Source: an uncultured virus (IMG/VR IMGVR_UViG_3300047552_001239)
Taxonomy: Duplodnaviria; Heunggongvirae; Uroviricota; Caudoviricetes
Length of the DNA stretch: 20,000 bases
Virus record (IMG/VR): IMGVR_UViG_3300047552_001239
Direction: 5' to 3' (one strand)
Position numbers and translations under genes: made by a program. The notes under the pieces are model-generated. The model was given only the letters and a program-made list of their open reading frames with translations. It was not told the DNA's origin and ran no database searches. Shown piece by piece: positions 3,634 to 20,000 of this stretch (positions are counted from its first letter, which is position 1; the number at the start of each line of letters is the position of its first letter).

Positions 3634-3834
3634 TTAATACCTTTCGAATCTATTATGAATATAAACTTGCGTTCCTGTTGCTTCTACTGAATACCCCTTA
3701 GAAAGTGCTTCTTTTGTAAAATTTTTAGTAGAAGTTATATGTTCAAATAAAACCATCAAATCGTTACAAATTGAACGCCTAATACCCTTGTAATCTTCAC
3801 ATATCTTTCTTAAAACTGGATCATCTATTAACAC
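3634..3834 (-). CDS. Hypothetical protein
   Basis: 66 aa, GTG start, packed in operon. Confidence 0.55.
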   Translation of the reverse strand: MLIDDPVLRKICEDYKGIRRSICNDLMVLFEHITSTKNFTKEALSKGYSVEATGTQVYIHNRFERY

Positions 3835-3851
3835 TGTATATAAATTAAAGT

Positions 3852-3890
3852 AAAAAAGGAACTAGTTATAATTTAAACTAGTTCCTTTAT
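3852..3890 (-). terminator. Intrinsic terminator (possibly bidirectional)
   Basis: 13-bp stem aaaggaactagtt (3855-3867) / aactagttccttt (3876-3888) with an A-tract on the left (U-tract on minus), directly downstream of the 3907-4386 gene. Confidence 0.85.
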
Positions 3891-3906
3891 ATTTTATTTT
3901 ATTTTA

Positions 3907-4386
3907 TTATACCAGAGGATCAACTGGAGGTTCTTCAGTAGGAACTGGTTCAACTGGAGGTTCCTCTACTGGTGGTTCCTCAGTAGGAACTGGTTCAACT
4001 GGAGGTTCCTCAACTGGTGGTTCCTCAACTGGTGGTTCAACTGGTGGTTCATCAACTGGAACTGGAATCGGTTCAACCGGAGTAATAATATCAGGAACAA
4101 TACCATCTAAAGATTGAGCAACGGTCTTCAATTCTTCAATAGCGGCTAATGCTTCAGCAGGAACATCTCCGGCAGAAACTAATGCCCCTTCTAAAACTTG
4201 AATCCGATCATATAACTCAACCTGCTTAGAAACAATCTCATCCTGAGCTTTTTTCAATTCAACAACCGCACCATTGATAATTGATGTTAATTCTGAAACT
4301 TTCATATCTACATACCTCTTTAATTTACGAAATTGTTCTTTTTCATAATTGAATATGACAATCTTACTTATATTTACCGAAGTCAA
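3907..4386 (-). CDS. Coiled-coil protein with Pro/Glu-rich repetitive C-terminal tail
   Basis: Helical core (ELKKAQDEI...ALAAIEELKTVAQSLDGIVPD) followed by EEPPVEP repeats. Two plausible starts: TTG 4386 (AAGGAGG) and ATG 4305 (GAGGT). Confidence 0.8.
   Translation of the reverse strand: MTSVNISKIVIFNYEKEQFRKLKRYVDMKVSELTSIINGAVVELKKAQDEIVSKQVELYDRIQVLEGALVSAGDVPAEALAAIEELKTVAQSLDGIVPDIITPVEPIPVPVDEPPVEPPVEEPPVEEPPVEPVPTEEPPVEEPPVEPVPTEEPPVDPLV
3913..4080. repeat. Coding tandem repeats (EEPPV/EPVPT)
   Basis: Repeated ggttcctcaactgg-like units. A 38-bp near-identical pair at 3929-3966 and 3974-4011 (45-bp period). Confidence 0.9.
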
Positions 4387-4418: not shown

Positions 4419-4439
4419 TTATATAGATATTATATAATG
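4419..4439 (+). promoter_or_regulatory. Phage promoter-like motif TTATATAGATATTATATAATG
   Basis: Identical 21-mer also at 17853-17873 on minus. Contains TATAAT and lies upstream of RBS GAGGAG and ATG 4463. Confidence 0.75.
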
Positions 4440-7096: not shown

Positions 7097-8650
7097 TTAT
7101 AGTAATATAATATCTTCTTGATTTAATGCTCGTTTAAAAATTCTAAAACTAGAAATATGACCATTTAAAAATCCAGATGATATATTTCTACTAATATCTT
7201 CACCTTTATTACTGGATACACTTCCATGATGTCCAATATTAATATGAGTAGGGATTCCAGAATATGCTGGAACTGTAACATTTGTTTCTAATTTAATATC
7301 GCCATTTAAATAAGTCGATTGTACGTTAGAATCAAAAACAAAAGCAGCAGATAATGTATTATTAAATAAAGCTTCGGTTTCAGTTGTTTGATCTAATGGA
7401 CCAACATAAGAAGCCCAATCTCTATTATAATATGAAATTATATTCCCATCTTTTAATACAGATCCTAATTGATAATTAAATCCAGCTAATGAAAATAACC
7501 ATCTATAATCCATTCGTGTTAAATATGCATAATTATGAGATGTATTTAAAACGGTGGGATCATATTCTGTTAATTTAGTAGATGCAAAATGATATCTACC
7601 TAATAAATTAAAATTAACAATATAAGTAGTTTGCCCCTTATATGGGAATGGTACATTTAAATCAGCATTAGATATCCAACAATAATCTGCGTATCTTATT
7701 GGAGGAGAAGAAAAATTATTAGAATAAATATATGAAGTTGGATATGGCATTGGTTCTAATTGAGCACCCCAAACATATACCCCGGCTGTTGTACTGCCAG
7801 CATAACTCCAATTATCAATACTATCTGTAAAACCTAAAACTACTTTAAAATCACCAGAATCTGCACCAGTATAGAATGTTAATGAAATCCTATACCAAGA
7901 ATATTCATCAAATTCAAATTCCCCAACCCGAGAAATTTTTTTAATAGAACAATAAGGAGTAGAACCGGTATTTAAAAAGAAAGATGGTAAATCTGGAAAG
8001 GTAGAAGTATCAAAATTTTGAGAAAATGATAATATAGTACCTGCTTCCAAATCATAAACTACAGTTGCTCTATTTTGATTTGAACTATCTAAATATCTCA
8101 ATCTAACATATTTTCGTTCTGCTGCTCTTATAAAAGTACTGAATGTTAATACTTTATTTCTCGAAGGAGTTGAAGTAGAACCTAATGATTGGATTGGAAA
8201 AATTTGAGAATTAGCAACAAAATTTATATAATGTTCAGAAGTTGTATTTGTTTCCGTTATTTTTTGTACAGTAGATGTATTATCGGGTGCTACTAATCCA
8301 ACACTAGCCTGAATTAAAGCATTTACCCCTGTTCCAGTAAAATCTTCTGATTTTTTAATATAATTTAAAGATTGACTTTCAATCAACAATCCTTCTGATT
8401 CAATTTTAGGTTGATTCTTAACTGCTTTCTTTAAAATACCATCAATTCCAATATATGTCGAAACAGAATCTCGTTGAAAGTTAACTGTGCCGTTACCTCT
8501 AACAAATTCTATATCTCCACCAATAAAATTAACATCTAAATCTGAAATTGATGCTTTTGTTAATTGATCGAGATTTAATTGTTCAGCAGCTAAAACAGGA
8601 TCTGAATATATTTCTACTAATTTTTTAAGGGAAAGAATATTTTTACTCAT
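7097..8650 (-). CDS. Phage spike/fibre protein with LamG-like C-terminus, paralog 4
   Basis: FQRDSVSTY, GLLIESQSLN, WYRISLTF, WGAQLE...TSYI, NGHISSFRIF motifs. Confidence 0.8.
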   Translation of the reverse strand: MSKNILSLKKLVEIYSDPVLAAEQLNLDQLTKASISDLDVNFIGGDIEFVRGNGTVNFQRDSVSTYIGIDGILKKAVKNQPKIESEGLLIESQSLNYIKKSEDFTGTGVNALIQASVGLVAPDNTSTVQKITETNTTSEHYINFVANSQIFPIQSLGSTSTPSRNKVLTFSTFIRAAERKYVRLRYLDSSNQNRATVVYDLEAGTILSFSQNFDTSTFPDLPSFFLNTGSTPYCSIKKISRVGEFEFDEYSWYRISLTFYTGADSGDFKVVLGFTDSIDNWSYAGSTTAGVYVWGAQLEPMPYPTSYIYSNNFSSPPIRYADYCWISNADLNVPFPYKGQTTYIVNFNLLGRYHFASTKLTEYDPTVLNTSHNYAYLTRMDYRWLFSLAGFNYQLGSVLKDGNIISYYNRDWASYVGPLDQTTETEALFNNTLSAAFVFDSNVQSTYLNGDIKLETNVTVPAYSGIPTHINIGHHGSVSSNKGEDISRNISSGFLNGHISSFRIFKRALNQEDIILL

Positions 8651-8654
8651 AATA

Positions 8655-10001
8655 TTAAATATTACCTAATTCAGCTTCCGTTAATAATTCATTATAAATT
8701 TTAACAGAAGTTATATGCCCATTAAATCCATTAGAACCAAATTCTAATTTATAAGGAGTTAACTCATCAGGTAGTAAAATCAAAGAATTTACATTAATAG
8801 GATTTGAAAATTTAGTATTATTCAAAGAAGAATATATTTGATTATTAGGTTTATTATATACAAATGCAAATCTTTGTAATTCTTTATTATTTGGAATGTA
8901 ATCAAAATCTACTTCTTCTAGATCTCCTGAATTATTTGCCCAATAAGTTCCATATACCATTCTATTTTGTTCCCACCAATCCTTATCTACTAAAATATTA
9001 TTAATACCCATAGATATTTTTGATGTTCCTAATTGTATATCAAAAACTTTAGGATATCTAATAGTAGAATCTATAAAATCAAAATCTACTATTACACTAA
9101 ATGAAGAATTTGGTACTTTTGGAAAATTATATTCGAACGGCGCAAAGAATTCATCAGAATCCCTCAATACTGGGGAAGCTAATGTTGGAATATAAGAAGA
9201 CATATAAGGTAGCTTTTCTAATTGAGCTCCCCATAATAAAATACCATCACCAGATGCATAAGTGACACCTGAAGTTTTTATTAAATTAATTCTTATACCT
9301 GGATTTGTAGCTCCAGTACCAGAATTAAAAGTATAAGATATTCTCATCCAATTATTATTTATTACAGTAACGCTAGTTACTAAACCAGTAGAAATACTAG
9401 AGGATGTGAAAGTATTTGCATCAAAAATAGCAGATTGATTAGTATTGTCTTTATTAAATGATTCTACTTTAATTTTATTATATTTATTTGCTCTGACAAA
9501 TACTGAAAATGTATATAATGTATTAGAAATTAAAGCATTTGGTGAATTATTAGGGAATGTTAATTCAATATATGAAGTTGTATTAACATCTGCTCCTAAT
9601 TTTAATTCATCTACTGTTGCACCATTATCTGGAGCAATAGTAGTTAATAAATCTACAGCTACTGTACTATTTACATTACCCCATCTTTGAAATTGAGTAG
9701 AATATGGGATTAAATTAGTAGATGATTGATTCTCAACTAATAAACCATTTGCTTCGAATCTTGGTTCATCATATCTAGCATATCTTAATCTACCATAAAT
9801 ATCAATATAAGATGCAGTAGAATTTCTTCTAAAAACAATATTACCAACTCCATGCGTCATGATTATATTGTTTTTTGTTTGAACTGCGAACATTGGGTTT
9901 GCTAACTTCCCCAACATTCCTCGAGAACCAATATATAATTGTGCCTCTGTAGGCTCACTGTATCTTCTTTGTATTTCTTTAAATGATAGTGTTTTAGACA
10001 T
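8655..10001 (-). CDS. Phage spike/fibre protein with LamG-like C-terminus, paralog 3
   Basis: FRRNSTASY, DEPRFEANGLLVE, WMRISYTF, WGAQLE...SSYI, NGHITSVKIY motifs. Confidence 0.8.
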   Translation of the reverse strand: MSKTLSFKEIQRRYSEPTEAQLYIGSRGMLGKLANPMFAVQTKNNIIMTHGVGNIVFRRNSTASYIDIYGRLRYARYDEPRFEANGLLVENQSSTNLIPYSTQFQRWGNVNSTVAVDLLTTIAPDNGATVDELKLGADVNTTSYIELTFPNNSPNALISNTLYTFSVFVRANKYNKIKVESFNKDNTNQSAIFDANTFTSSSISTGLVTSVTVINNNWMRISYTFNSGTGATNPGIRINLIKTSGVTYASGDGILLWGAQLEKLPYMSSYIPTLASPVLRDSDEFFAPFEYNFPKVPNSSFSVIVDFDFIDSTIRYPKVFDIQLGTSKISMGINNILVDKDWWEQNRMVYGTYWANNSGDLEEVDFDYIPNNKELQRFAFVYNKPNNQIYSSLNNTKFSNPINVNSLILLPDELTPYKLEFGSNGFNGHITSVKIYNELLTEAELGNI

Positions 10002-10003
10002 AA

Positions 10004-11356
10004 TTAAACAATTCTAATCTCATCATCGGTTAAAGCCGTATCATAAATTCTAAAATTAGTAATATGGCCATTCAAAACATTTTGAGATAAATTAATAGAA
10101 CTACCTATATTAATTTTACCCGATGGGAAGGTAGCATGTTCAGGAGAAGATGTTTTAGAAATTGTTTTAAAACTATTTCTAAATAAAGTATAATTACCAT
10201 CATCATATCGTAAAGCAATACGATGTTGAGTAAAAGCTTCTAAGCTATCTTCCTCAGTAATACCTAATAAATCATAATATGCTATTAAATTACCATTAGA
10301 TGTAATTTTTAATGAATTATGTTTAAACCCATCTAAAGTAAATACATCTCTTGAAGAATTATGTTTAGTACCTAAAATATCAATATCTAATATATAGGTA
10401 TTTTCTGTTGTTGGATAATTAATAGTTGTATTTAAAATATCAATTTCCAACCAATCAGAAGTTCTTGTTACTGGAGATGATTCTGTAATAATATAAGAAG
10501 ATGCAAAATAATTTTCTTCTAATTGCGCTCCCCAAATAAATACAGTATTCCATAAATTATCTATACCTGCATAATTATCATTAAATGCATTATTAGTTCC
10601 TTCCTGAACTGTATTTATAGTAAATCGCAATGTAGGGAAAGTAGTGTTCGAAGCAGTAGTAATGGTGAAGGTCATTGATACTCTAAACCAACCTCCCCAC
10701 ATTTTTTGTACTGCATATGATGTATTTGAAAAAAAAGATGATCCAACTCTATTATTAAATAAAACTCCATTCTGTAAATCAACATTCACAGAATAAAAAT
10801 TATTTCCTACTATATTAGTAGGACTAACTCCAGATAAATCACTTACTGTTAATTTTGTAAATTGAGAATTATTTTGTTTAACAAATAAACTTATTGTATA
10901 ACTTGAAACGGTATTAATTGGTAATGCTAATGGGATATCTTGATATAAAGCATGTAAAGAAGTATTAGTATTATCTCTTAATTGAAAAAGTTTTCCTAAT
11001 ATTCCATTTGGAGCTGCTAAATCAGTATCTCCTTCACTAACAATAGATTGATAAGTTTTCCAATATTCTGTATTAGTAAATAATTCAGAATATCGTACTA
11101 AATTAGTAGAGGAACCTTCAATTAATAATCCATTCTTTTCAAATCTTGGTTCATCAATATTCGAATAAGATACTAATCCCATACGATCAATATAGGTTGC
11201 GACTGAACTTCTATTAAATGCAACTGTTCCTACGCCAGTCACAGGATTTAGATTATTCTGTAACGGCATATGTAAGATAGGAGCACTTAAAATTCCATAA
11301 TTAGGACTGTTTGTTTGATTTTGTAATGATCCTACTGAAGGGTAAATTCTAGCCAT
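10004..11356 (-). CDS. Phage spike/fibre protein with LamG-like C-terminus, paralog 2
   Basis: FNRSSVATY, DEPRFEKNGLLIEGSSTN, WFRVSMTF, WGAQLE...SSYI, NGHITNFRIY motifs. Confidence 0.8.
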   Translation of the reverse strand: MARIYPSVGSLQNQTNSPNYGILSAPILHMPLQNNLNPVTGVGTVAFNRSSVATYIDRMGLVSYSNIDEPRFEKNGLLIEGSSTNLVRYSELFTNTEYWKTYQSIVSEGDTDLAAPNGILGKLFQLRDNTNTSLHALYQDIPLALPINTVSSYTISLFVKQNNSQFTKLTVSDLSGVSPTNIVGNNFYSVNVDLQNGVLFNNRVGSSFFSNTSYAVQKMWGGWFRVSMTFTITTASNTTFPTLRFTINTVQEGTNNAFNDNYAGIDNLWNTVFIWGAQLEENYFASSYIITESSPVTRTSDWLEIDILNTTINYPTTENTYILDIDILGTKHNSSRDVFTLDGFKHNSLKITSNGNLIAYYDLLGITEEDSLEAFTQHRIALRYDDGNYTLFRNSFKTISKTSSPEHATFPSGKINIGSSINLSQNVLNGHITNFRIYDTALTDDEIRIV

Positions 11357-11363
11357 TTTTATA

Positions 11364-12707
11364 TTACACCATAATTATTTCATCTTTTGAAAAAGCTCTA
11401 TCATAAATCCTAAAATTACAAATATGCCCATCAAAATAAATATTATTAATAGGATCTTCACCAAAATGCAAATATGTATTTACCCCAGCAGTATATGGTT
11501 CATCTATTCCTGTTGTTTCGATTTTACCATCTGCAAAAGTATGAACTGTATTTGAACTTCTAGTATAACCAATTTTATGTTTTACTTTAAAATCAGTCAT
11601 TGCTGGAAGAATATGATCAATTGAAGTACTAGGATTAATAATAAATCCACCTTGATTATTATTTGCTTCTTGAGACCATTTAATAACCCGAGATTTTTCT
11701 CTATTTTCAGGTAACGAACCGTATAAGGAACCAGTCCAAAAAATACTATGGTCACCTATACGATACAAACCTCTTAACACTACTTCTAATAATAATGTAT
11801 GATCAAATGATTGATCAGGTAGATTTCTATCATTTTCTATTACTAATATATCAGAAGCTCTAGTTTCAGCTACACCAGAAGTTGGAATATAAGATGTTGA
11901 ATACCATTTTCGTTCTAATTGTGCACCATATACATTAATAGTTTTATTATTAATATTTGATCCATAAGTACCAATTATTAATCCATAATCATAAGTATGA
12001 GCTGGATTAATTACATCAAGAGATTCTATTGTAAATGTTACCCTATACCAACCATTTATCAATTCTTCAATTCTATAATCTGCAAATCGTGTAATATTTA
12101 AAGTATAAACTAAAGATGGATTAGGTAATATTTTACCAGTTCCATCAAAAGTAAATTGTACTCTTGACATTACATTTGTCGTAGCATTTCTAATATATAA
12201 ATTAAAGGCATCTGTTGAATTAGTTGTGCCTTTCTTTACAAATATAGATAATGTTAAAGCATTAACGCCAGCTTCTGTAAATTGTATTGAACGGGCGATA
12301 AGTTGATTAGATGTTGTACCGGCAGTTGTTAAAGTAGATGCGAACGCGTTACTTTTATTTGTTGGATCTAGAACGGAAGAAGTAGTGACTGCAACAGAAG
12401 ATTTTGTCCAACTAGCATGAGCAAAATTATTAGATATTGCTATATGATTTTTTGTTGAAGATTCTAAAAGAATGCCTTCATATTCGAATCTCGGTTCATC
12501 AACTGGAGCAAATATTAATTTCTTAGTTAATCTATCAACATAAGACGCAGTCGTAGAACGACCAAAAGTTAAACTTCCAAATCCATCATAAACCAAACTA
12601 TGTTCAAATGATGCGTTACACACTGGGAAAGCTATATCCGAAGCTAAACCCAAATAATTATTTACTGTTTCTAAATTTGTTTTAGTTTTAGTAGTTTTTC
12701 TAGACAT
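11364..12707 (-). CDS. Phage spike/fibre protein with LamG-like C-terminus, paralog 1
   Basis: FGRSTTASY, DEPRFEYEGILLESSTKN, WYRVTFT, YGAQLE...TSYI, DGHICNFRIY motifs. Confidence 0.8.
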   Translation of the reverse strand: MSRKTTKTKTNLETVNNYLGLASDIAFPVCNASFEHSLVYDGFGSLTFGRSTTASYVDRLTKKLIFAPVDEPRFEYEGILLESSTKNHIAISNNFAHASWTKSSVAVTTSSVLDPTNKSNAFASTLTTAGTTSNQLIARSIQFTEAGVNALTLSIFVKKGTTNSTDAFNLYIRNATTNVMSRVQFTFDGTGKILPNPSLVYTLNITRFADYRIEELINGWYRVTFTIESLDVINPAHTYDYGLIIGTYGSNINNKTINVYGAQLERKWYSTSYIPTSGVAETRASDILVIENDRNLPDQSFDHTLLLEVVLRGLYRIGDHSIFWTGSLYGSLPENREKSRVIKWSQEANNNQGGFIINPSTSIDHILPAMTDFKVKHKIGYTRSSNTVHTFADGKIETTGIDEPYTAGVNTYLHFGEDPINNIYFDGHICNFRIYDRAFSKDEIIMV

Positions 12708-12782: not shown

Positions 12783-13169
12783 TTATTCTTTAAAGAACTT
12801 CTCTAACTGAACCATATCTAATGGTGTCAATTCAAGATTTTCAACTGAGTCTAATGAGATTGGAGAAAATTCAATTCTCAATTCTTCTTGTAATAATTCG
12901 TTATATTCCTTTACGAAATCTGGCATATTCTCAGTTGTTACTTTTATTTCTCCTGTTTCTTCAACGGCGGTTCCATATTTCCTAACTAAGTTCATCCTTT
13001 GTTCTTCGAGGAAACCTAATTCCTTAGAAATTTTTGTCAGACATTTCGATAATCGATATGAAACTTTTACCGGCAAACTTAGAGTTGTAATCTTTCTTAA
13101 AGATTCTTCGATAGATTTGAGTTCGCCTAAGGTAAAAATAAGAGTATCATTTTGAGTATTTTCAGACAT
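12783..13169 (-). CDS. DUF1617-like phage protein
   Basis: LPVKVSYRLSK...I..E...LEEQR..LV.KYG...F..E..ELL.EE pattern; RBS AAGGAG. Confidence 0.65.
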   Translation of the reverse strand: MSENTQNDTLIFTLGELKSIEESLRKITTLSLPVKVSYRLSKCLTKISKELGFLEEQRMNLVRKYGTAVEETGEIKVTTENMPDFVKEYNELLQEELRIEFSPISLDSVENLELTPLDMVQLEKFFKE

Positions 13170-13220
13170 AAAAAACAGATCTCCTTAATGTATAAGTCAA
13201 ATTGCGTAATTATTTATATA

Positions 13221-13250
13221 TAAAAAAGAATTTGGATTTTTGGCTCCAAA
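13221..13250 (-). terminator. Intrinsic terminator closing candidate ncRNA 1
   Basis: Minus strand TTTGGA-GCCAAAAA-TCCAAA followed by TTCTTTTTT. Confidence 0.55.
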
Positions 13251-13506
13251 CACTAAAATAAAGTTTAGGTTGGGATGATCATGTTGTATGACCATCCCTC
13301 CCTTAAAAAATTTTTAATTTTGCACTACCCAAATTTAGATAATATAATTATCTAAATACCGGTAAAGATAATGCTGCCGGAATTACTGCTGTCGCCGTCG
13401 ATGATGAAAATTACTTTGTTTTTACAATGATAAAGGACAACATTAAAATATACCCCTAAAAAAGTTTTGAAAATACATCCTTAACAGAATTTCTGTCTTA
13501 GATGTA
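13221..13506 (-). ncRNA. Candidate structured ncRNA 1 (~280 nt)
   Basis: Intergenic region with no ORF >=60 aa, bounded by the promoter motif and a terminator. Hairpins at 13272-13298 (fully paired with one G-U only on minus), 13333-13357, 13359-13380 and 13474-13506. Confidence 0.45.
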
Positions 13507-13525
13507 CTATATAATATCTATATCA
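13505..13525 (-). promoter_or_regulatory. Phage promoter-like motif (18/21 match)
   Basis: Minus strand TGATATAGATATTATATAGTA; 16-bp core ATATAGATATTATATA identical to the other copies. Confidence 0.7.
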
Positions 13526-13533
13526 AATAGTTA

Positions 13534-13734
13534 TTAATTTTTAGGAGTCAATGTAAAATTCTTTATAAACCATTCAGTTATTTCTTTAATCCCCATACCA
13601 TTTCTATAATCTGGAGATTTTAAAAGTTGTTTGGATATTTTTAATACTTGTAAATGTTCTTCTGCATCTTGATAATTATAAAATTCTTCTAAATCATCAT
13701 CGACTTTATATTTTGTTATCTGTATTATTTTCAT
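13534..13734 (-). CDS. Hypothetical protein
   Basis: 66-aa ORF in operon. Confidence 0.6.
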   Translation of the reverse strand: MKIIQITKYKVDDDLEEFYNYQDAEEHLQVLKISKQLLKSPDYRNGMGIKEITEWFIKNFTLTPKN

Positions 13735-14134
13735 TACTTGATAATTTTTTATTTCTTTTTGTAGTGATTGCTACCGGCAATTTATAAATAGTTGCGAAAC
13801 CATCTACAATAAATATAAAATGAGTATATTCTTTAGGATTTTGTTCATAAATAGATAAAACTGTAACTGGATTGGATTCTGTTTTTTCAATAGTTTTATC
13901 TTTTTTAAATCTTGTTGTGATTGTAACGGGAGGTATTTCTCCATACTTTCCTGTATTTTCATTTACTAGTATAACTCTATGAATCATTATTTGATGCGAT
14001 GCAACAGATGATTCATATGTAACGCTAATCGTATTAGATGAAAATTTGGATAATAATTTTTTAGTTTTAATCTCAATTATTTTTCCATTATGCTCATCGC
14101 AGAAATTTACCATTAAAGATTCTAGAATATTCAT
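13706..14134 (-). CDS. Hypothetical protein
   Basis: 142 aa, ATGA-coupled to sspB. Confidence 0.65.
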   Translation of the reverse strand: MNILESLMVNFCDEHNGKIIEIKTKKLLSKFSSNTISVTYESSVASHQIMIHRVILVNENTGKYGEIPPVTITTRFKKDKTIEKTESNPVTVLSIYEQNPKEYTHFIFIVDGFATIYKLPVAITTKRNKKLSSNENNTDNKI

Positions 14135-14577
14135 TTTTTATTTTTAAATAACGGCACAACATTATCATTACTTTCTTTTTGTTCTAATATTTTTTCTTTT
14201 TCTTTTTCTTTCTCTCTTTCTTTTTCTTCTAATATTTTAATCTTTTCTATATCAAATCCAGTTACAAATCCAATATTATTTTCTTTTGAAAACAAAGATA
14301 AAATATGATTAGTAGGAAATTCAACATATTGTGAACTACCTGAAAATCTTGCACGAAATGAAGTTAAATCATCCGTTATTTGTAAACCAACCGCAGCTAT
14401 TGGATTTATATTTAAAATAATTATTCCATCTTTATTTAAATATTGTTGGGGAATATACGGTTGATCTTTTCCATAAACTGCAATAAATGGTGTATAATTA
14501 TTATCCAAACACCAATTAAATGTGGCTAATAATTGATATGTTACTAAACTTCTATTTTTACTTTTAGGATTATTCAT
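14131..14577 (-). CDS. sspB: SspB, ClpXP protease specificity-enhancing adaptor homolog
   Basis: YQLLATFNWCLDNNYTPFI, DGIIILNINPIA, FRARFSG and ILSLFSKEN align by eye with E. coli SspB (YLLRAFYEWLLDNQLTPHL, DGQIVLNIAPRA, FNARFGG, VLAIYAREN). Confidence 0.92.
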   Translation of the reverse strand: MNNPKSKNRSLVTYQLLATFNWCLDNNYTPFIAVYGKDQPYIPQQYLNKDGIIILNINPIAAVGLQITDDLTSFRARFSGSSQYVEFPTNHILSLFSKENNIGFVTGFDIEKIKILEEKEREKEKEKEKILEQKESNDNVVPLFKNKK

Positions 14578-14750
14578 TTACATCGTGATTGTTTCCAAGA
14601 AGAAAAATATATATTATTTCTTGTTATTAAATATTTTTTATTATTCTTTTCAAATAGTACAAAAGCAGTATTTCTTATAAAATTACAATCTAATATCAAA
14701 CAATGTTTGCCGAATTCTGGGGAATCATAATATACTGATTTTTGTAGCAT
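14574..14750 (-). CDS. Small hypothetical protein (58 aa; below ORF-track cutoff)
   Basis: Manual translation MLQKSVYYDSPEFGKHCLILDCNFIRNTAFVLFEKNNKKYLITRNNIYFSSWKQSRCK*. It fills the gap and its TGA overlaps the sspB ATG. Confidence 0.65.
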   Translation of the reverse strand: MLQKSVYYDSPEFGKHCLILDCNFIRNTAFVLFEKNNKKYLITRNNIYFSSWKQSRCK

Positions 14751-14754
14751 ATCA

Positions 14755-14976
14755 CTAAGCTTTGTTCCCTCTTTTAATAAACCAATTTAATGCTTTTATT
14801 ATTAATCGATTATCCCACCAATTTGGAATTTCTCGCTTGGTTTTTTTATCTTTATAGAAAGTAGGACCTAAATATTTATGCCATTCCATAAATACATGAG
14901 ACCCATTATCTAATCGTAATTTATAAAATGGATTTATACAAACTATAGTATTATGAGCTAGTTTTATGCAAGTCAT
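14755..14976 (-). CDS. Hypothetical phage protein
   Basis: 73 aa (MEWHKYLGPTF), ATGA coupling. Confidence 0.7.
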   Translation of the reverse strand: MTCIKLAHNTIVCINPFYKLRLDNGSHVFMEWHKYLGPTFYKDKKTKREIPNWWDNRLIIKALNWFIKRGNKA

Positions 14977-15215
14977 TTTTTTAATACATCCGTTAAAAAT
15001 TCTTGTAGTTTTATAATAAGTTGGTTATTTACTTCATCAAAATTAGAATTTTTAAAATCAATTTCCGAAAGTTTTGATAATAAAAAATCTTTAGTTGATA
15101 AAACAGCACATATCCAACAATCTTGGAATTGTCTCGCCATCTGATAATTATAACGGTCATTTATTCCTTTATCAGTAGGAATACCGTTATTTTTTAACCA
15201 CTGTTCTAAATTCAT
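14973..15215 (-). CDS. Hypothetical protein
   Basis: 80 aa, ATGA coupling. Confidence 0.65.
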   Translation of the reverse strand: MNLEQWLKNNGIPTDKGINDRYNYQMARQFQDCWICAVLSTKDFLLSKLSEIDFKNSNFDEVNNQLIIKLQEFLTDVLKK

Positions 15216-16087
15216 TGGCGTATTATTTTATGTGATATATCATTTTTATGATGATTTTTAATTTTAAACATTTCTTTATCTGACATTTCTAGAATATCTT
15301 CAGCTAAATATTCCTTTTGAACTGAAGATAAATCAATAGAAACTAATCCAAAACTACATGTCATATTTAAATTAGAAAATTTAGTTTTTAATTTATTACT
15401 CATTCTTGATATTACTTCTTCAGAAAGTTCTGGACCTGTTTCTAATAATATTATTGCAAATTCATCTCCACCCATTCTAGCAACAATATCTATTTTTCTT
15501 ACAGATTGAGTTAATATATTAGAAAAGTTTTTTAATACTTTATCGGCAGATATATGACCAACTAAATGATTTACATTTTTAAAATTATCTATATCAAAAA
15601 ATACTACAGTTAGCCATTTTTTATATCTAGTACATCTCATTATTTCATAATTTAATAATTCAGTAAAATGTTTTGAATTATATAAATTGGTTAATGAATC
15701 CCGAATTCCAATCTCTTCTATTTTCTTAATATATTTATTTAATAATAAAAATATAAATGGAAAAATTGATAATGAAAAAAATGTTTGTACATCAAAAATT
15801 AATGGTAAATATTGCAAATCTTTCTCAATAGGATGATATAATACAATATAAAATTTTGATAAAAGAGATATAGCAGTAATAATTAATATATATTTACATT
15901 TTAAAGTAAAACATATTAATAAATATAATAAAACATATATAATACATGGTATTATATATTTTGTTGTAGTGTCAATATAAATTATAAAAAAGAAAAGAGA
16001 GAAAACTAATATTGATTTTATAAAAAAACTACAACATTGTCTTTTTGATTTACTTTTTCTAAAATTAATTTTCTGAGATTCTATCAT
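15212..16087 (-). CDS. Membrane-anchored GGDEF diguanylate cyclase
   Basis: About four hydrophobic N-terminal segments, then RDSLTNLYN, FFDIDNFKNVN..GH..AD, RxxD I-site (RKID) and an intact ARMGGDEF. Confidence 0.93.
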   Translation of the reverse strand: MIESQKINFRKSKSKRQCCSFFIKSILVFSLFFFIIYIDTTTKYIIPCIIYVLLYLLICFTLKCKYILIITAISLLSKFYIVLYHPIEKDLQYLPLIFDVQTFFSLSIFPFIFLLLNKYIKKIEEIGIRDSLTNLYNSKHFTELLNYEIMRCTRYKKWLTVVFFDIDNFKNVNHLVGHISADKVLKNFSNILTQSVRKIDIVARMGGDEFAIILLETGPELSEEVISRMSNKLKTKFSNLNMTCSFGLVSIDLSSVQKEYLAEDILEMSDKEMFKIKNHHKNDISHKIIRQ

Positions 16088-16247
16088 CCAACTCTTTTTT
16101 AATATTTGTATATTGACGCATTATTTGTAATATTTCAGTATCTGATAATATTAATTTTGGATTTATTATTTCTCCATCATTAAAAATCATCCAATAATTA
16201 TTTTGAGATCCTGTCTCACTAGTTACTAAAATATGTCTAATTTGCAT
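16065..16247 (-). CDS. Hypothetical protein
   Basis: 60-aa ORF in operon. Confidence 0.55.
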   Translation of the reverse strand: MQIRHILVTSETGSQNNYWMIFNDGEIINPKLILSDTEILQIMRQYTNIKKELDDRISEN

Positions 16248-16248
16248 A

Positions 16249-16566
16249 TTAATATTCTATATTTATTGAAATCCAATTAATTTGGGTTCCAATTTGTTTT
16301 GCTACTAAGATATCATCTTCTTGTTTAAATTCAATATTTTTATTTCTTACAACGGCAATTTCTCTTCGTAAAATTTCAGAAATTTTTAAAGCTAATTTTT
16401 CATTTACTATAACAGATATTAAATTTCCTTGAATATGTTCGGCTTTTGCAAGCCAATCAATAGGATCATATAAAACTTTAAATAATAATCTTGTTCGTGA
16501 TTCAGATTCAATAACGCGCCATTTAGATAATAAATCTATTGAAAAGTCATCTATTAAGTATAACAT
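16249..16566 (-). CDS. Hypothetical protein
   Basis: 105-aa ORF in operon. Confidence 0.65.
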   Translation of the reverse strand: MLYLIDDFSIDLLSKWRVIESESRTRLLFKVLYDPIDWLAKAEHIQGNLISVIVNEKLALKISEILRREIAVVRNKNIEFKQEDDILVAKQIGTQINWISINIEY

Positions 16567-16653
16567 TTACTTGATCCATATATAATCCAATTCTCAATAT
16601 ATCCTTCTCTATCTTTCAAATATAATTAGAAGTTTTTAAACTATTTGTTATAT

Positions 16654-16697
16654 TAAAAAAATTATACTACCGATACAAATGAATGTATCGGTAGTAT
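16654..16697 (-). terminator. Intrinsic terminator of the Nop/IS110-domain gene
   Basis: Perfect 14-bp stem atactaccgataca (16664-16677) / tgtatcggtagtat (16684-16697), with a U-tract following on minus. Confidence 0.88.
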
Positions 16698-16705
16698 TTA
16701 AATTC

Positions 16706-17776
16706 TTATTCTTCTTCTAAATCTTCTGGGGTGATTGGAAAAGTATTAAATTCTTCCATATCCTCATCAGAAGGATTCACTAAATCGTCAAGCTCACGCT
16801 CAACTTGATTAGTATCAGGATTTGCCTTACCAGCGAAAATTTCTTGTAGTGTTCTTCGCTGATGAGTGTATCCCAGTTTGGCTTGTTCATAACGGGGCTT
16901 AACTGGAAGACTTTCGTACTCTCTCCAATTAGTCCACATATCGGCCAAAAACTCTTTGACCATATATCGGACCGCCGCGTTATGTCGGTGTTTTGGAGTG
17001 GTGGTTTGCCACCTTGGCAACATTTCCAACCGTCGTTTATAATTTCGGTAGACCTGTTCATAAGGTCCACCAAGTTTAATAAAACCAGGTCCTAAAACCC
17101 CTACTAATTTTGTTTTTAAGAGAGGATTAAAAGTAATCCCTTTGGTTTCTTTTAATTCTCCTTTTTTATTAACATAGGTCTTTGGGACTAGGTGATGTTC
17201 TTTTCGACATCTACCTTCTCCTCGAACGAAGTTTCCCTCATCGTCATAGATAGGGACAACATCTAATCCGGCATATTTTTGTAATGCCGCTATCGAGTTG
17301 CATTTAGTAATATCTATCTCTGACATTATTATGCCAGCCATTCGAGGACCAACTCCTCGTATATTTGAGAGATAAAACCGATAAAAACCCTCTTTTTCGA
17401 GTTGTTTCTGAATTAACTGCTCGTAAACAGCTTCTGACTTCAACATGAAGTCAAATGCTTCAAATAGACGAACATCATCGTCTGTTTTTAGCAACTTGAT
17501 CTCACCATCAAAATCCTTGGGAAGTTTCACTTTCTTCTTCCCAAGAGCTGCAACAGCCTCACTAACTAACTTATATTCGATCTTCAGTCGATCGATCAAT
17601 TTTTTTGCAATTGATTCTTTCTTCTGCTTATCAGCAGAATCTAAGTCTTCTTGATTAATACCTAATGCATCTCTGAAGATTTGCACCAGGCGATTGCCAA
17701 TACTAATTCTGAGTTTTTGTTGGTCGTACAATGTACGAACCAGTGTACGGATAAAAGACTGCTGGCGTTCGGCCAT
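16706..17776 (-). CDS. RuvC-less IS110/Nop-fold protein (TasA-like candidate RNA-binding protein)
   Basis: Starts directly with the IS110-type coiled coil (IRTLVRTLYDQQKLRISIGNRL). Transposase_20/Nop-like core LSNIRGVGPRMAGIIMSEIDI...LQKYAGL...FNPLLK...YEQVY...KHRHNAAVRYMVKEFL..MW..WR...LPV..Y...LGY. No DEDD RuvC domain. Acidic tail. RBS AGAGG. Confidence 0.8.
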   Translation of the reverse strand: MAERQQSFIRTLVRTLYDQQKLRISIGNRLVQIFRDALGINQEDLDSADKQKKESIAKKLIDRLKIEYKLVSEAVAALGKKKVKLPKDFDGEIKLLKTDDDVRLFEAFDFMLKSEAVYEQLIQKQLEKEGFYRFYLSNIRGVGPRMAGIIMSEIDITKCNSIAALQKYAGLDVVPIYDDEGNFVRGEGRCRKEHHLVPKTYVNKKGELKETKGITFNPLLKTKLVGVLGPGFIKLGGPYEQVYRNYKRRLEMLPRWQTTTPKHRHNAAVRYMVKEFLADMWTNWREYESLPVKPRYEQAKLGYTHQRRTLQEIFAGKANPDTNQVERELDDLVNPSDEDMEEFNTFPITPEDLEEE

Positions 17777-17852
17777 GTGGATGTTTCCTCTATTGATGTT
17801 TCTAACATGATAAGAAAAAAGAAAATATAATATTCCTTTTTCTTTTTCTCAC

Positions 17853-17873
17853 CATTATATAATATCTATATAA
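17853..17873 (-). promoter_or_regulatory. Phage promoter-like motif TTATATAGATATTATATAATG
   Basis: 21/21 identical to 4419-4439; about 77 nt upstream of ATG 17776. Confidence 0.75.
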
Positions 17874-17889
17874 AAAATTAAAATAATAA

Positions 17890-18267
17890 TTATTCTATTA
17901 CTAAATCTAAATTAGAATGAGTTCCTATCATTCTCTCTCCATTCTCACTCCAAGTTAAATAATCTTCATTATCTACAACGCCAGCTAATATAGATTTATT
18001 ATCTTTTAATCTAAATTCGGTTAATTGGGTTACTATTTTTCCACTTTTTGTTTTAATTATAACATCACCAGATAGAGCTTTATTTTTATCAAATTTTAAA
18101 GTAAAATTATCTATTGAATCTATTAATTTTACAAGTTTATCTAATATAATTAAACCAAATGCAACACCATCTGATGTTTGCCACCATCCATTTTCATCAT
18201 CTATTTCCGTTTTATCAATACCATTTAATATATTGAATAATTGTTTCTTAAAATGTTCTTTAGTCAT
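17890..18267 (-). CDS. Hypothetical phage protein, probably two fused modules
   Basis: N-terminal GIDKTE...GWWQTSDG segment plus a C-terminal FDKNKALSG...TKSG...W..NG...LDL module that I recall from small phage proteins. Confidence 0.7.
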   Translation of the reverse strand: MTKEHFKKQLFNILNGIDKTEIDDENGWWQTSDGVAFGLIILDKLVKLIDSIDNFTLKFDKNKALSGDVIIKTKSGKIVTQLTEFRLKDNKSILAGVVDNEDYLTWSENGERMIGTHSNLDLVIE

Positions 18268-18294
18268 AATAATACTCTAGTGGAAAGGCAATCG

Positions 18295-18337
18295 AAAAAA
18301 TAAACCAGATTAGAAGAAGAAAACTCTAATCTGGTTT
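18295..18337 (-). terminator. Intrinsic terminator closing candidate ncRNA 2
   Basis: 13-bp stem aaaccagattaga (18302-18314) / tctaatctggttt (18325-18337), followed on minus by ATTTTTT. Confidence 0.8.
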
Positions 18338-18455
18338 GACGGGATATCTTGAATTTAGTTGATGTTACAATTTTGTTAAACTATGAACAGGAGGAGAACT
18401 GTTATATTTAACATCCAAAAGAAATACTAAATTCGTCCGTCTAGTGTGTTATTTG
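18295..18455 (-). ncRNA. Candidate structured ncRNA 2 (~150-160 nt rod plus terminator)
   Basis: Four nested stems between 18338 and 18441: gacgg/ccgtc, gaatttagt/actaaattc, gatgtta/taacatc and aacag/ctgtt. Partial promoter motif at 18471-18481. No ORF. Confidence 0.6.
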
Positions 18456-18487
18456 TTAACTTGATAAATTATATCTATATATAATTT

Positions 18488-18796
18488 CTAAAACCCCAAA
18501 TCGTCTAAAGATAAAATATGTTTTGTTATTACATCATATGGAAAAGAAGTAGTTCTATATTTTCCATTTGTATATTCAGGAATAATAGAAATTAATATTT
18601 CTATTTTTGTAGAAGTATAATAATTGATACCTAAATAAGTAGAATTTTCACTAAAATTTTTTTTAACATATTTTTTAGCGGCATTTATAATTTCTTTAAA
18701 AGGAATATCATTTAATGTTTTTGGGAGATCATATATTGGTTGTCTTGTTGGTTGTTCTGGAACGGCAAAAAATAATAAATGTGAAATATCTATCAT
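18488..18796 (-). CDS. Hypothetical protein
   Basis: 102-aa ORF. Confidence 0.65.
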   Translation of the reverse strand: MIDISHLLFFAVPEQPTRQPIYDLPKTLNDIPFKEIINAAKKYVKKNFSENSTYLGINYYTSTKIEILISIIPEYTNGKYRTTSFPYDVITKHILSLDDLGF

Positions 18797-18799
18797 ATA

Positions 18800-19243
18800 T
18801 TAATCTTCATCAATTTGTTTTCCACTTTCTTTTAATTTTCTTCTAATGAATTTTTTATTTGCGGAAGATCGTCCAATAAGTGATCCTCCCATTCCTCCTA
18901 ATGCTGCTCCTAAATATCCTCCACTAAGTGTATTTATTATTTTACCTTGTGGATCATTTGGATTACCGGGTATCAATACACCTAATCCTGTTCCAATAAG
19001 ACTACCTAATCCAGTACCTACTATTCCTCCTACAAATCCTTTTTTAGCTCTTTTCGAAGCTAATTCATCTAATTCGTCAGAAGAAATTTTTATTCCATCT
19101 TCTTTTAATCTATTACGAATATATTTATTTGTAACAGGTTGTGAGGCTTCATGATCTCCAAGATTATGAAGATCTGATTTAACAGTATTCCAAATTTCTC
19201 CTTCATTTAATAAATTATTAATATCTTGAAGTATTGTATTCAT
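18800..19243 (-). CDS. Glycine-zipper membrane-type protein; possible internal head/ejection protein
   Basis: Two GxxxG-rich hydrophobic segments (GFVGGIVGTGLGSLIGTGLG; GGYLGAALGGMGGSLIG); N-terminal MNTILQDINNLLNE leader. Confidence 0.7.
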   Translation of the reverse strand: MNTILQDINNLLNEGEIWNTVKSDLHNLGDHEASQPVTNKYIRNRLKEDGIKISSDELDELASKRAKKGFVGGIVGTGLGSLIGTGLGVLIPGNPNDPQGKIINTLSGGYLGAALGGMGGSLIGRSSANKKFIRRKLKESGKQIDED

Positions 19244-19248
19244 AATAT

Positions 19249-20000
19249 TTAAGACTCATGTTTATAACCATATGGAAAAAGATAATCCACTAATACCATT
19301 GATTCTTTACATCTAGTAATTGCGGTATACAACCATTTATCACTATATTCTTTAAAGAATAATGATTCATTAAGGATTAAACACTTATTTGCTTCACTGC
19401 CTTGTGCTTTATGTACTGTCAATGCTCTACCAAAAGAAACTTCCGTTATTTTTTGAAAAGGGTAACTTTCCCAATTAATTTTATACTTTCTTAAAAATTC
19501 CATTTGAGGGTAATTAAATTTTGGGGCTTTACCTCTTACTCTAAATCTTTTTATAGTAGATTGACATGACATTAATATTTGATATTCATCTTCATCTTGT
19601 TTAGATAAATAATGTTTAAATACTGGTTTTATTATTAATGATTCTCCATCTTCATTTTTTACAAATATAGATGGAATATTTAACCAATCAATTTTTTTAT
19701 TTAAATGATATGAAGAATAATCATCTTGTACAATTAAAATATCTGAATTATAAATATCTAAATCATAATTGTTTTTCCAAACAATTAAAGTTTCATCTTT
19801 AACTGGAAATCTACTAGTATTATAATTTTTTAATCTTCTATAATAATCATTTATTCGTTTTACGCTTCTATTTGAACCGCATAAAATAAGATCTGAATTT
19901 ATTACTAAATCTTCTCTAAAATTTTCCAATTGAATCGATTTTAGATATTTATAATTAGGTACTTGATTACTATCAAAATAATTTAATTTACCACCAGTTC
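19249..20000 (-). CDS. RecD/Dda-like SF1B helicase, C-terminal part (5' end outside window)
   Basis: FGRALTVHKAQGSE (motif V) and WLYTAITR (motif VI). The frame stays open from 19929 up to 20000 (TGGKLNYFDSNQVPNYKYLKSIQL). Confidence 0.9.
   Translation of the reverse strand, partial: TGGKLNYFDSNQVPNYKYLKSIQLENFREDLVINSDLILCGSNRSVKRINDYYRRLKNYNTSRFPVKDETLIVWKNNYDLDIYNSDILIVQDDYSSYHLNKKIDWLNIPSIFVKNEDGESLIIKPVFKHYLSKQDEDEYQILMSCQSTIKRFRVRGKAPKFNYPQMEFLRKYKINWESYPFQKITEVSFGRALTVHKAQGSEANKCLILNESLFFKEYSDKWLYTAITRCKESMVLVDYLFPYGYKHES

Follow-up and report, generated by a model that had tools for sequence, protein, structure and literature searches.

TIGR-Tas systems are recognized by a protein that joins a coiled coil to a Nop-like RNA-binding domain, is homologous to characterized Tas proteins and has an associated TIGR array; Tas proteins with no HNH or RuvC nuclease domain are classed as TasA. 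Binding of 36-nt RNAs by TasA has been reported (Faure 2025, PMC12045711), and for TasA of the stem-loop type a preprint describes guide-dependent repression of transcription without cleavage (Xu 2026 preprint, 10.64898/2026.09.09.750476). With these two sources, RNA-guided binding and repression by TasA are already in the literature. Here we analyze a gene at positions 16706..17776 (minus strand) of a 20-kb stretch of DNA (20,000 nt, hereafter 'the window') from an uncultured Caudoviricetes virus, IMG/VR record IMGVR_UViG_3300047552_001239. An earlier note, made from the letters alone, had proposed this gene as a stand-alone, TasA-like candidate for RNA-guided binding with no visible TIGR array. 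The part of the proposal that names a nuclease-free TasA instead of an IS110 recombinase was borne out; the suggestion of a new or domesticated stand-alone system was not. The gene is an ordinary member of the TasA family, described since 2025 and covered by a curated NCBI model, and its identification as tasA is in itself not novel. What makes the locus unusual is that the window holds no array unit while all of the related loci with usable flanks have an array, and we somewhat favour a standard effector whose array lies outside the window.

The reading frame was as proposed (ATG start, 356 amino acids, stop codon included in the coordinates), and the gene was assigned by the open reading frame (ORF) call together with the NCBIfam model NF052498 (TIGR_Tas_endo; 'TIGR-Tas system RNA-guided endonuclease'). 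The protein matched this model with 112.3 bits (cut-off 100) over the whole profile (positions 1-215 of 215), and the IS110 model gave 22.1 bits (cut-off 140). The sole Pfam match was Transposase_20 (PF02371) at residues 136-192, marginal at 22.9 bits with a cut-off of 21.3; Pfam detected no DEDD/RuvC-type or HNH domain in the protein, in agreement with the initial remark that an N-terminal DEDD RuvC domain is missing. PHROG 4285, a family labelled 'transposase', matched the protein at 3.3e-31. A single-sequence phmmer search of the PDB returned SpTasH (3.9e-12) and TaTasR (7.4e-9) as its sole matches, and a search of the same database with a profile of 63 family members returned TaTasR (4e-29), SpTasH (1e-21) and no other match. 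We then had Foldseek compare known structures with an AlphaFold model of the protein, which was built from an alignment of 62 of 66 homologues plus the query (predicted local distance difference test score, pLDDT, 85.1; predicted template modelling score, pTM, 0.77). The top 10 hits were all TasH or TasR chains, at 3.5e-9 to 3.1e-7 (best values 3.5e-9 for TasH and 1.9e-7 for TasR); the next were IS621 and ISCro4 with an E-value of about 0.02, and Nop56/58 with 1.2. The comparison with Tas, IS110 and Nop5 that had been suggested as a check thus came out for Tas in both profile and fold, the IS110 model having failed and the Nop56/58 match being weak.

The AlphaFold model opens with a coiled-coil helix at residue 2, and no nuclease domain precedes this helix. 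The N-terminal coiled-coil (dimerization) region comprises residues 1-126 (17399..17776, minus strand) with helices at 2-38, 50-77 and 99-126. The Nop-like RNA-binding core comprises residues 136-305 (16862..17371, minus strand), as delimited by the Transposase_20 match and by alignment to residues 145-298 of SpTasH, and has pLDDT >90 across its length. An IS110-type coiled coil with a Transposase_20/Nop-like core is what had been read from the sequence, and Pfam, AlphaFold and Foldseek agree on it. Within the core, residues 173-213 form a beta-hairpin insertion that is common to the family by alignment and model. A long loop insertion lacking Ser-Gly had been singled out as a peculiarity of this protein; the loop after YAGLD (VVPIYDDEGNFVRGEGRCRK... 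in translation) indeed holds no Ser-Gly, but the insertion is no oddity, being normal Tas anatomy shared by the homologues. The C-terminal tail, residues 306-356 (16709..16861, minus strand), was modelled with pLDDT 50-65. It is missing or different in the other homologues of an alignment of 27, and its acidic distal part is found only in the window protein and in the 95%-identical protein P0001.

A truncated or decayed IS110-family transposase that had lost its DEDD domain might look similar: Pfam sees Transposase_20 only, and 'transposase' is the label given to such proteins by PHROG 4285 and by the RefSeq record of the Ralstonia jumbo phage phiRSL1. We give this explanation hardly any credence. 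Apart from the score of the IS110 model, far below its cut-off, the 27 aligned homologues start at a common coiled-coil helix, preceded by no more than some 40 additional residues, and the 62 homologues of a further alignment start at the same helix. Precomputed Pfam annotation records a DEDD domain in none of the 66 homologues (search range 195-623 amino acids), so that close homologues with an intact RuvC domain, which would make the gene a truncated insertion sequence (IS), were not found among them. A repeat search detected no IS ends or flanking inverted repeats around tasA, as had been noted at the outset, and in phiRSL1 the 'transposase' is followed by a 1.4-kb TIGR array. Because the NF052498 model was passed and the IS110 model failed, because TasH and TasR are the nearest structures and because the coiled-coil start is shared, the window protein is TasA, a nuclease-free Tas, rather than a truncated IS110 protein.

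The protein also carries the residues associated with guide processing. SpTasH is reported to cut its pre-tigRNA with Y289 and H296 of a C-terminal loop (PMC13421893), and the Xu 2026 preprint (10.64898/2026.09.09.750476) describes this Tyr/His pair as retained by dual-repeat systems and missing in stem-loop clades. Y296 of the window protein aligns with SpTasH Y289 (phmmer alignment), and H305 is part of a KLGxxH motif and is shifted by a few residues relative to SpTasH H296: the histidine stands three residues after KLG in the window protein and directly after it (KLGH) in SpTasH. Among 111 array-bearing relatives, Y296 and H305 each reach at least 90% conservation, and judging from this H305 is probably the equivalent of H296. 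The Tyr/His pair of the dual-repeat clade is therefore present, the histidine being assigned by family conservation. Altogether 89 columns are conserved to at least 90% in these relatives; 68 of them are preserved in the window protein, including Y296, K300, L301, G302 and H305.

We scanned both strands of the window, coding regions included, for arrays; the flanks of tasA covered in this way are 2.2 kb upstream and 16.7 kb downstream. Four array detectors were used, which had been validated on loci L001, L002, L003, L013, L015, L022 and L168. The stacked-period detector found at most 7 conserved columns in the window (at period 57), compared with 10 and 15 at period 36 in its two positive controls, phiRSL1 and SpTasH. 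The best score of a position weight matrix (PWM) for repeat1-repeat2-repeat1 was 0.6 bits in the window versus 23.7-42.4 in four control loci, the maxima over 20 shuffles being -4.1 to 16.0, and the score for repeat1-repeat1 pairs was 6.9 bits versus 20-26 in real arrays. Of the universal repeat core RCGAGYCA the window contains no exact copy and 10 copies with one mismatch (11.5 expected); matches to repeat 2 of the sister clade are at chance level (8 versus 9.4 expected), and intergenic repeat pairs in the window gave nothing array-like. There is no array in the window, as the earlier note had reported for the whole 20 kb, nor even a single unit; as the scans took in genes as well as both strands, a unit hidden within a gene is excluded too.

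Several less specific procedures were abandoned. Tandem Repeats Finder and a seed-based repeat finder reported no array in the window, and both were dropped as tests; Tandem Repeats Finder also missed the 1.4-kb array of the phiRSL1 control, so that the failure of generic repeat tools to show an array counts for little as evidence. Sliding autocorrelation, which barely told the phiRSL1 array from noise, was dropped too. The strict pattern RYGAGYCA-N26-30-RYGAGYCA had no match in five IMG/VR records, one of them with a known array; it was too strict and was replaced by PWM scans of contigs. A k-mer cluster at 3813-4060 was rejected as an array, as it corresponds to a Pro/Glu-rich repeat encoded by the end of ORF 3907-4386. 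The 15/45-nt periodic repeat at 3920-4060 (minus strand), which encodes the Pro/Glu-rich (EPPVE) C-terminal repeat of this ORF, is the only periodic signal in the window.

Besides a guide encoded elsewhere, a non-array RNA had been put forward as the guide, and in the window this could be the structured leader at 13.2-13.5 kb or stem-loop tigRNAs in or near the gene. According to the Xu 2026 preprint, stem-loop tigRNAs can sit at flexible positions, even inside tas, and the 341-nt leader at 13170-13510 (minus strand) stands out by its degree of structure (fold z-score -5.8). We nevertheless regard a non-array guide as very unlikely, and this part of the proposal was not supported. The window protein stands on the dual-repeat side, with the Y/H loop kept, whereas the stem-loop clades described in the same preprint are without that loop, and it nests in a clade with 37-nt dual-repeat arrays. 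Hairpins in the leader and in the flanks have loops of 3-8 nt, where two spacers would need roughly 30 nt, and neither strand holds a family repeat, within genes or between them. Rfam yields a single sub-threshold match in the window (33.8 bits, with a gathering score of 70), to the leu/phe leader on the strand opposite to tas, which we treated as a chance match. Finally, the relatives described below that have usable flanks all have arrays.

The sample of related loci consisted of the best 80 of 259 IMG/VR relatives and the best 80 of at least 279 metagenome relatives. The stacked-period detector showed period-36/37 arrays in most of them. These 160 loci correspond to 141 unique tas sequences, and an array was called if at least one of three automated criteria indicated it. 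An array is present in 123 of the 141 unique tas loci; of the 88 loci that have 500 nt or more to each side of tas, 84 have a 36/37-nt TIGR array by the automated criteria. The median array-to-tas distance is 36 nt, and in two further loci the arrays are 1.1 and 2.1 kb from tas. The arrays lie on the tas strand, no chain on the opposite strand having been found in 162 loci. A strong period-36 stack was seen in 63 loci; 61 of them align to A[AG]CGAG[CT]CA-N9-AGA[CA]A[AC]CCA-N8/9, and the other two are unrelated repeats. The clade nearest to the window protein (45-51% identity) has a 37-nt unit, TAGCGAGCCA...CAGAAACA, which is often found upstream as well as downstream of tas.

Four of the 88 loci were exceptions in this census. 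In two of these (L016 and L063) inspection by eye showed a short, degenerate array next to tas. The whole contig of L071 carries a five-unit array about 2 kb downstream, and the whole contig of L033 has an array of about nine units roughly 24 kb away, both on the tas strand. After the whole-contig check all 88 related loci with usable flanks have an array, either adjacent or elsewhere on the contig, which makes the link between tas and array near absolute in this subfamily. Given this linkage, a window gene with no array in 19 kb of flanks represents either a rare remote-array architecture or a genuine orphan. In the wider literature tas genes without a detected array are common and not new, since the Xu 2026 preprint reports arrays for 6,685 of 20,096 tas loci.

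We lean, with some reserve, towards the window protein being a standard dual-repeat TIGR-TasA effector with its array outside the window. The earlier note had foreseen that an array elsewhere in the genome would make this an ordinary TasA system, and in our assessment that is the likeliest outcome. The array of this phage is most likely remote: as in two relatives, it would lie in another part of the genome, here at a distance from tasA of more than 2.2 kb on the upstream side or more than 16.7 kb on the downstream side. By homology, two copies of TasA would dimerize via the N-terminal coiled coil, the Nop-like core would bind a 36/37-nt tigRNA, and the loop with Y296 and H305 would cut this tigRNA out of the precursor array. 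The two tigRNA spacers, of roughly 9 nt each, would pair with both strands of a DNA target, and the bound complex may block transcription or replication sterically, with no cutting. RNA binding, DNA binding and repression are thus predictions for the window TasA, drawn from its homologues.

The window copy stands apart from its surroundings in composition. The GC content of tasA is 39.2%, where the other 29 ORFs average 27.0% (z 2.9), and its GC content at third codon positions (GC3) is 32.8% versus 13.1% (z 3.5), the highest of the 30 ORFs; the impression that the gene is richer in GC than its flanks was thus correct. The relatives come from phages of 36-64% GC. As both GC and GC3 are outlying and the relatives reside in such phages, a fairly recent transfer of tasA is a reasonable inference. 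The closest relatives are P0001 (95% identical, on a contig of 7.1 kb) and P0002 (57%, on a contig of 159 kb). In a family tree of 143 sequences the window protein groups with these two (support 1.0); their stem has a length of 0.59 substitutions per site, and the group nests within the clade with 37-nt arrays (support 0.92).

The gene is organized as a single-gene promoter-terminator cassette, that is, as its own transcription unit; the promoter motif, ribosome-binding site and strong terminator noticed at first reading were all found. The promoter-like 15-mer TATAGATATTATATA lies at 17856-17870 (minus strand), 80 nt upstream of the tasA start. It has three exact copies in the window, at 4422-4436 (plus strand), 13508-13522 (minus strand) and 17856-17870 (minus strand), all of them intergenic and co-oriented with the next gene, and a near-copy at 18465-18479 (minus strand); looser matches in the window are at chance level (15 found versus 14 expected). 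From its placement TATAGATATTATATA is probably the phage's own promoter. The ribosome-binding site, AGAGGAAA (GAGG) at 17784..17791 (minus strand), was read from the sequence 10 nt before the ATG. An intrinsic terminator with a 14-bp stem, a 6-nt loop and a T-run (16664..16697, minus strand) follows 9 nt after the tasA stop; the 2.2-kb region scanned has four terminator-like sites versus 0.7 expected in shuffles. In the 5' leader of tasA, at 17780-17802 (minus strand), the direct repeat GAAACATC occurs twice with 15-nt spacing around the ribosome-binding site, and the similar AACATC.AC precedes ORF 17890-18267.

Two contigs from sequencing run X1 bear on how stable this arrangement is. One matches the window from 17856 upward and is unlike it on the tas side. 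The break coincides exactly with the edge of the promoter motif, a hint at a co-occurring variant with a different cassette in this place. The second, with a depth of 44, joins 18796 to 19249 with two other letters between them and represents a co-occurring variant without the Gly-rich ORF 18800-19243. Together the two contigs hint at strain-level turnover of cassettes around tasA. Promoter/stem-loop (PeSL) cassettes are said to shuffle genes in T4-type phages (PMC2839356, PMC4122927), and in our comparison the layout of the tasA cassette recalls them.

Some of these data weigh against a standard effector with a remote array. The array that should accompany a TIGR-Tas locus is absent from the 20-kb window; remote arrays are rare, with about 4 of the 88 loci having theirs >1 kb from tas, and in only one of the 88 does the array lie beyond the distances that the window covers. 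The lineage of the window protein has the longest root-to-tip distance in the tree (1.49 versus a median of 0.86), and 12 positions at which all seven closest array-bearing relatives have the family residue are altered in the window protein, K37A, H256W and K259T among them. Lastly, tasA is compositionally foreign and forms a single-gene promoter-terminator cassette, so that it could have been captured without an array.

The same data, namely the 19 kb of flanks with no array unit, the GC3 value at the top of all ORFs, the long branch and the lineage-specific changes at otherwise fixed positions, are what a true orphan tasA would be expected to show: a gene captured alone, as a promoter-gene-terminator cassette, by a phage with no array of its own. 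The cassette's own promoter motif and terminator fit this explanation, as does the contig that diverges exactly at 17856, a hint that the cassette is exchangeable. An orphan TasA might load tigRNAs of another element in the cell (a co-infecting phage, a prophage or a plasmid with AGCGAGYCA-type repeats), or the protein might have drifted to a role that needs no guide, or be in decay. Cross-loading is made conceivable by repeat 1 (AGCGAGYCA), which is nearly the same across relatives that are only 35-50% identical in protein. We see an orphan as a serious but rather unlikely alternative, as none of the 88 relatives with usable flanks remained array-less after their whole contigs had been checked. 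Decay in particular is opposed by the intact ORF, by the retained processing dyad and conserved columns, and by the maintenance of the gene in at least two further lineages.

A more elaborate version, which we hold to be improbable, has an array-less phage carry bare tasA as an exchangeable cassette that acts in trans on the tigRNAs of competitors, as a protein-only counter-measure or hijack. If this were true, TasA acting in trans could put the guides of a rival to work for its own phage, or act as a sponge for them and poison the TasA dimers of that rival, a protein-only move within an RNA-guided conflict between phages. The conservation of repeat 1 across such diverged proteins raises the question whether Tas proteins and arrays of different phages cross-react, which bears on how these systems act in conflicts between mobile elements.

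The phage that carries the window is AT-rich, with about 27% GC, and the DNA runs that hold the window are labelled as freshwater or aquatic metagenomes. Runs X1 and X2 contain 95% of the sampled words of the window, and no RNA run is listed among those containing it. In the phage collection no close cultured relative was found, identities of the helicase and tail genes being at most 31%; searches with neighbour genes found no related phage in IMG/VR, a single-protein scan of IMG/VR gave no match, and neither did a scan of GTDB genomes. The window also encodes a fragment of a Dda-like helicase. Four tandem paralogous tail proteins of 517, 448, 450 and 447 amino acids (PHROG 5939) are encoded at 7097-12707 (minus strand), two or more of which have a concanavalin-A-like lectin domain at their end. 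At 15212-16087 (minus strand), 0.6 kb downstream of tasA, lies a gene for a GGDEF protein, a putative diguanylate cyclase (Pfam 1.5e-33) whose N-terminal half is hydrophobic and membrane-like. A further gene, at 14131-14577 (minus strand), specifies an SspB-like protein (Pfam SspB 3.2e-15) that may be a ClpXP adaptor. The ORF at 14755-14976 (minus strand), of 73 amino acids, belongs to PHROG 7990 (9.5e-31) and shares 73.5% DNA identity over 182 nt with Klebsiella phage 05F01, the sole nucleotide-level match in the phage collection of a 7-kb query (13000-20000). The leader at 13170-13510 is located between a promoter motif and ORF 12783-13169; none of 100 shuffles was as stable, it opens with a terminator-like hairpin right after the promoter motif, contains a locally GC-rich stretch and has no Rfam match. 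No tRNA was found in the window.

Among known systems, Nop5 and Nop56/58 are the most distant to be considered. An evolutionary link of Tas to these proteins has been published (PMC12045711), and the window protein shares their RNA-binding core fold distantly, at a level not significant alone (Foldseek 3nvi_A, E 1.2, probability 0.25; 3id5_A, E 1.3). Unlike them, it has no fibrillarin-binding N-terminal domain and does not belong to their family. The IS110 bridge-RNA recombinases IS621 and ISCro4 resemble it in the coiled coil and the Transposase_20/Nop-like core; in contrast to them, the window protein has no DEDD domain and no Ser-Gly catalytic loop, and its gene has no element ends. The locus does not present the combination of DEDD domain, catalytic Ser, bridge RNA and ends by which an IS110 transposase is defined.

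Closer parallels exist among the Tas loci themselves. The IMG/VR contigs L033 and L071 are like the window in carrying tasA without an adjacent array, among unrelated gene neighbours; they differ from the window as seen in that their arrays are found on the contig, about 24 kb and about 2 kb off. ORF034 of phiRSL1 is 35% identical to the window protein over residues 9-307 and is likewise a nuclease-free Tas in a large phage, but it is adjoined by the unannotated TIGR array with degenerate AGTSNNCC repeats. The array occupies about 14.2-15.6 kb of the phiRSL1 record (L001, NC_010811.2), with repeats every 18 nt or so, and the ORF annotated there as 'transposase', ORF034, encodes a TasA.

The best solved relatives, by sequence as well as by fold, are SpTasH of Salicola phage CGphi29 (PDB 9w03/9w04/21kl) and TaTasR (PDB 9mty). 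These carry an N-terminal HNH or RuvC nuclease and cut DNA, whereas the window protein has no nuclease; the repeats of the SpTasH array, AAGCGAGYCA and AAGACAACCA, are of the same type as the family consensus. The nearest described systems are the dual-repeat phage TIGR-TasA systems, such as that of FpTasA (PMC12045711). The window locus departs from them in having no array within 2.2 kb upstream and 16.7 kb downstream, and the window protein in its extra C-terminal tail, the foreign composition of its gene and the longest branch of the family. It is like them in being a phage-borne, nuclease-free protein made up solely of a coiled coil and a Nop-like domain, in keeping the Y/H loop and in having relatives with 36/37-nt arrays on the tas strand.

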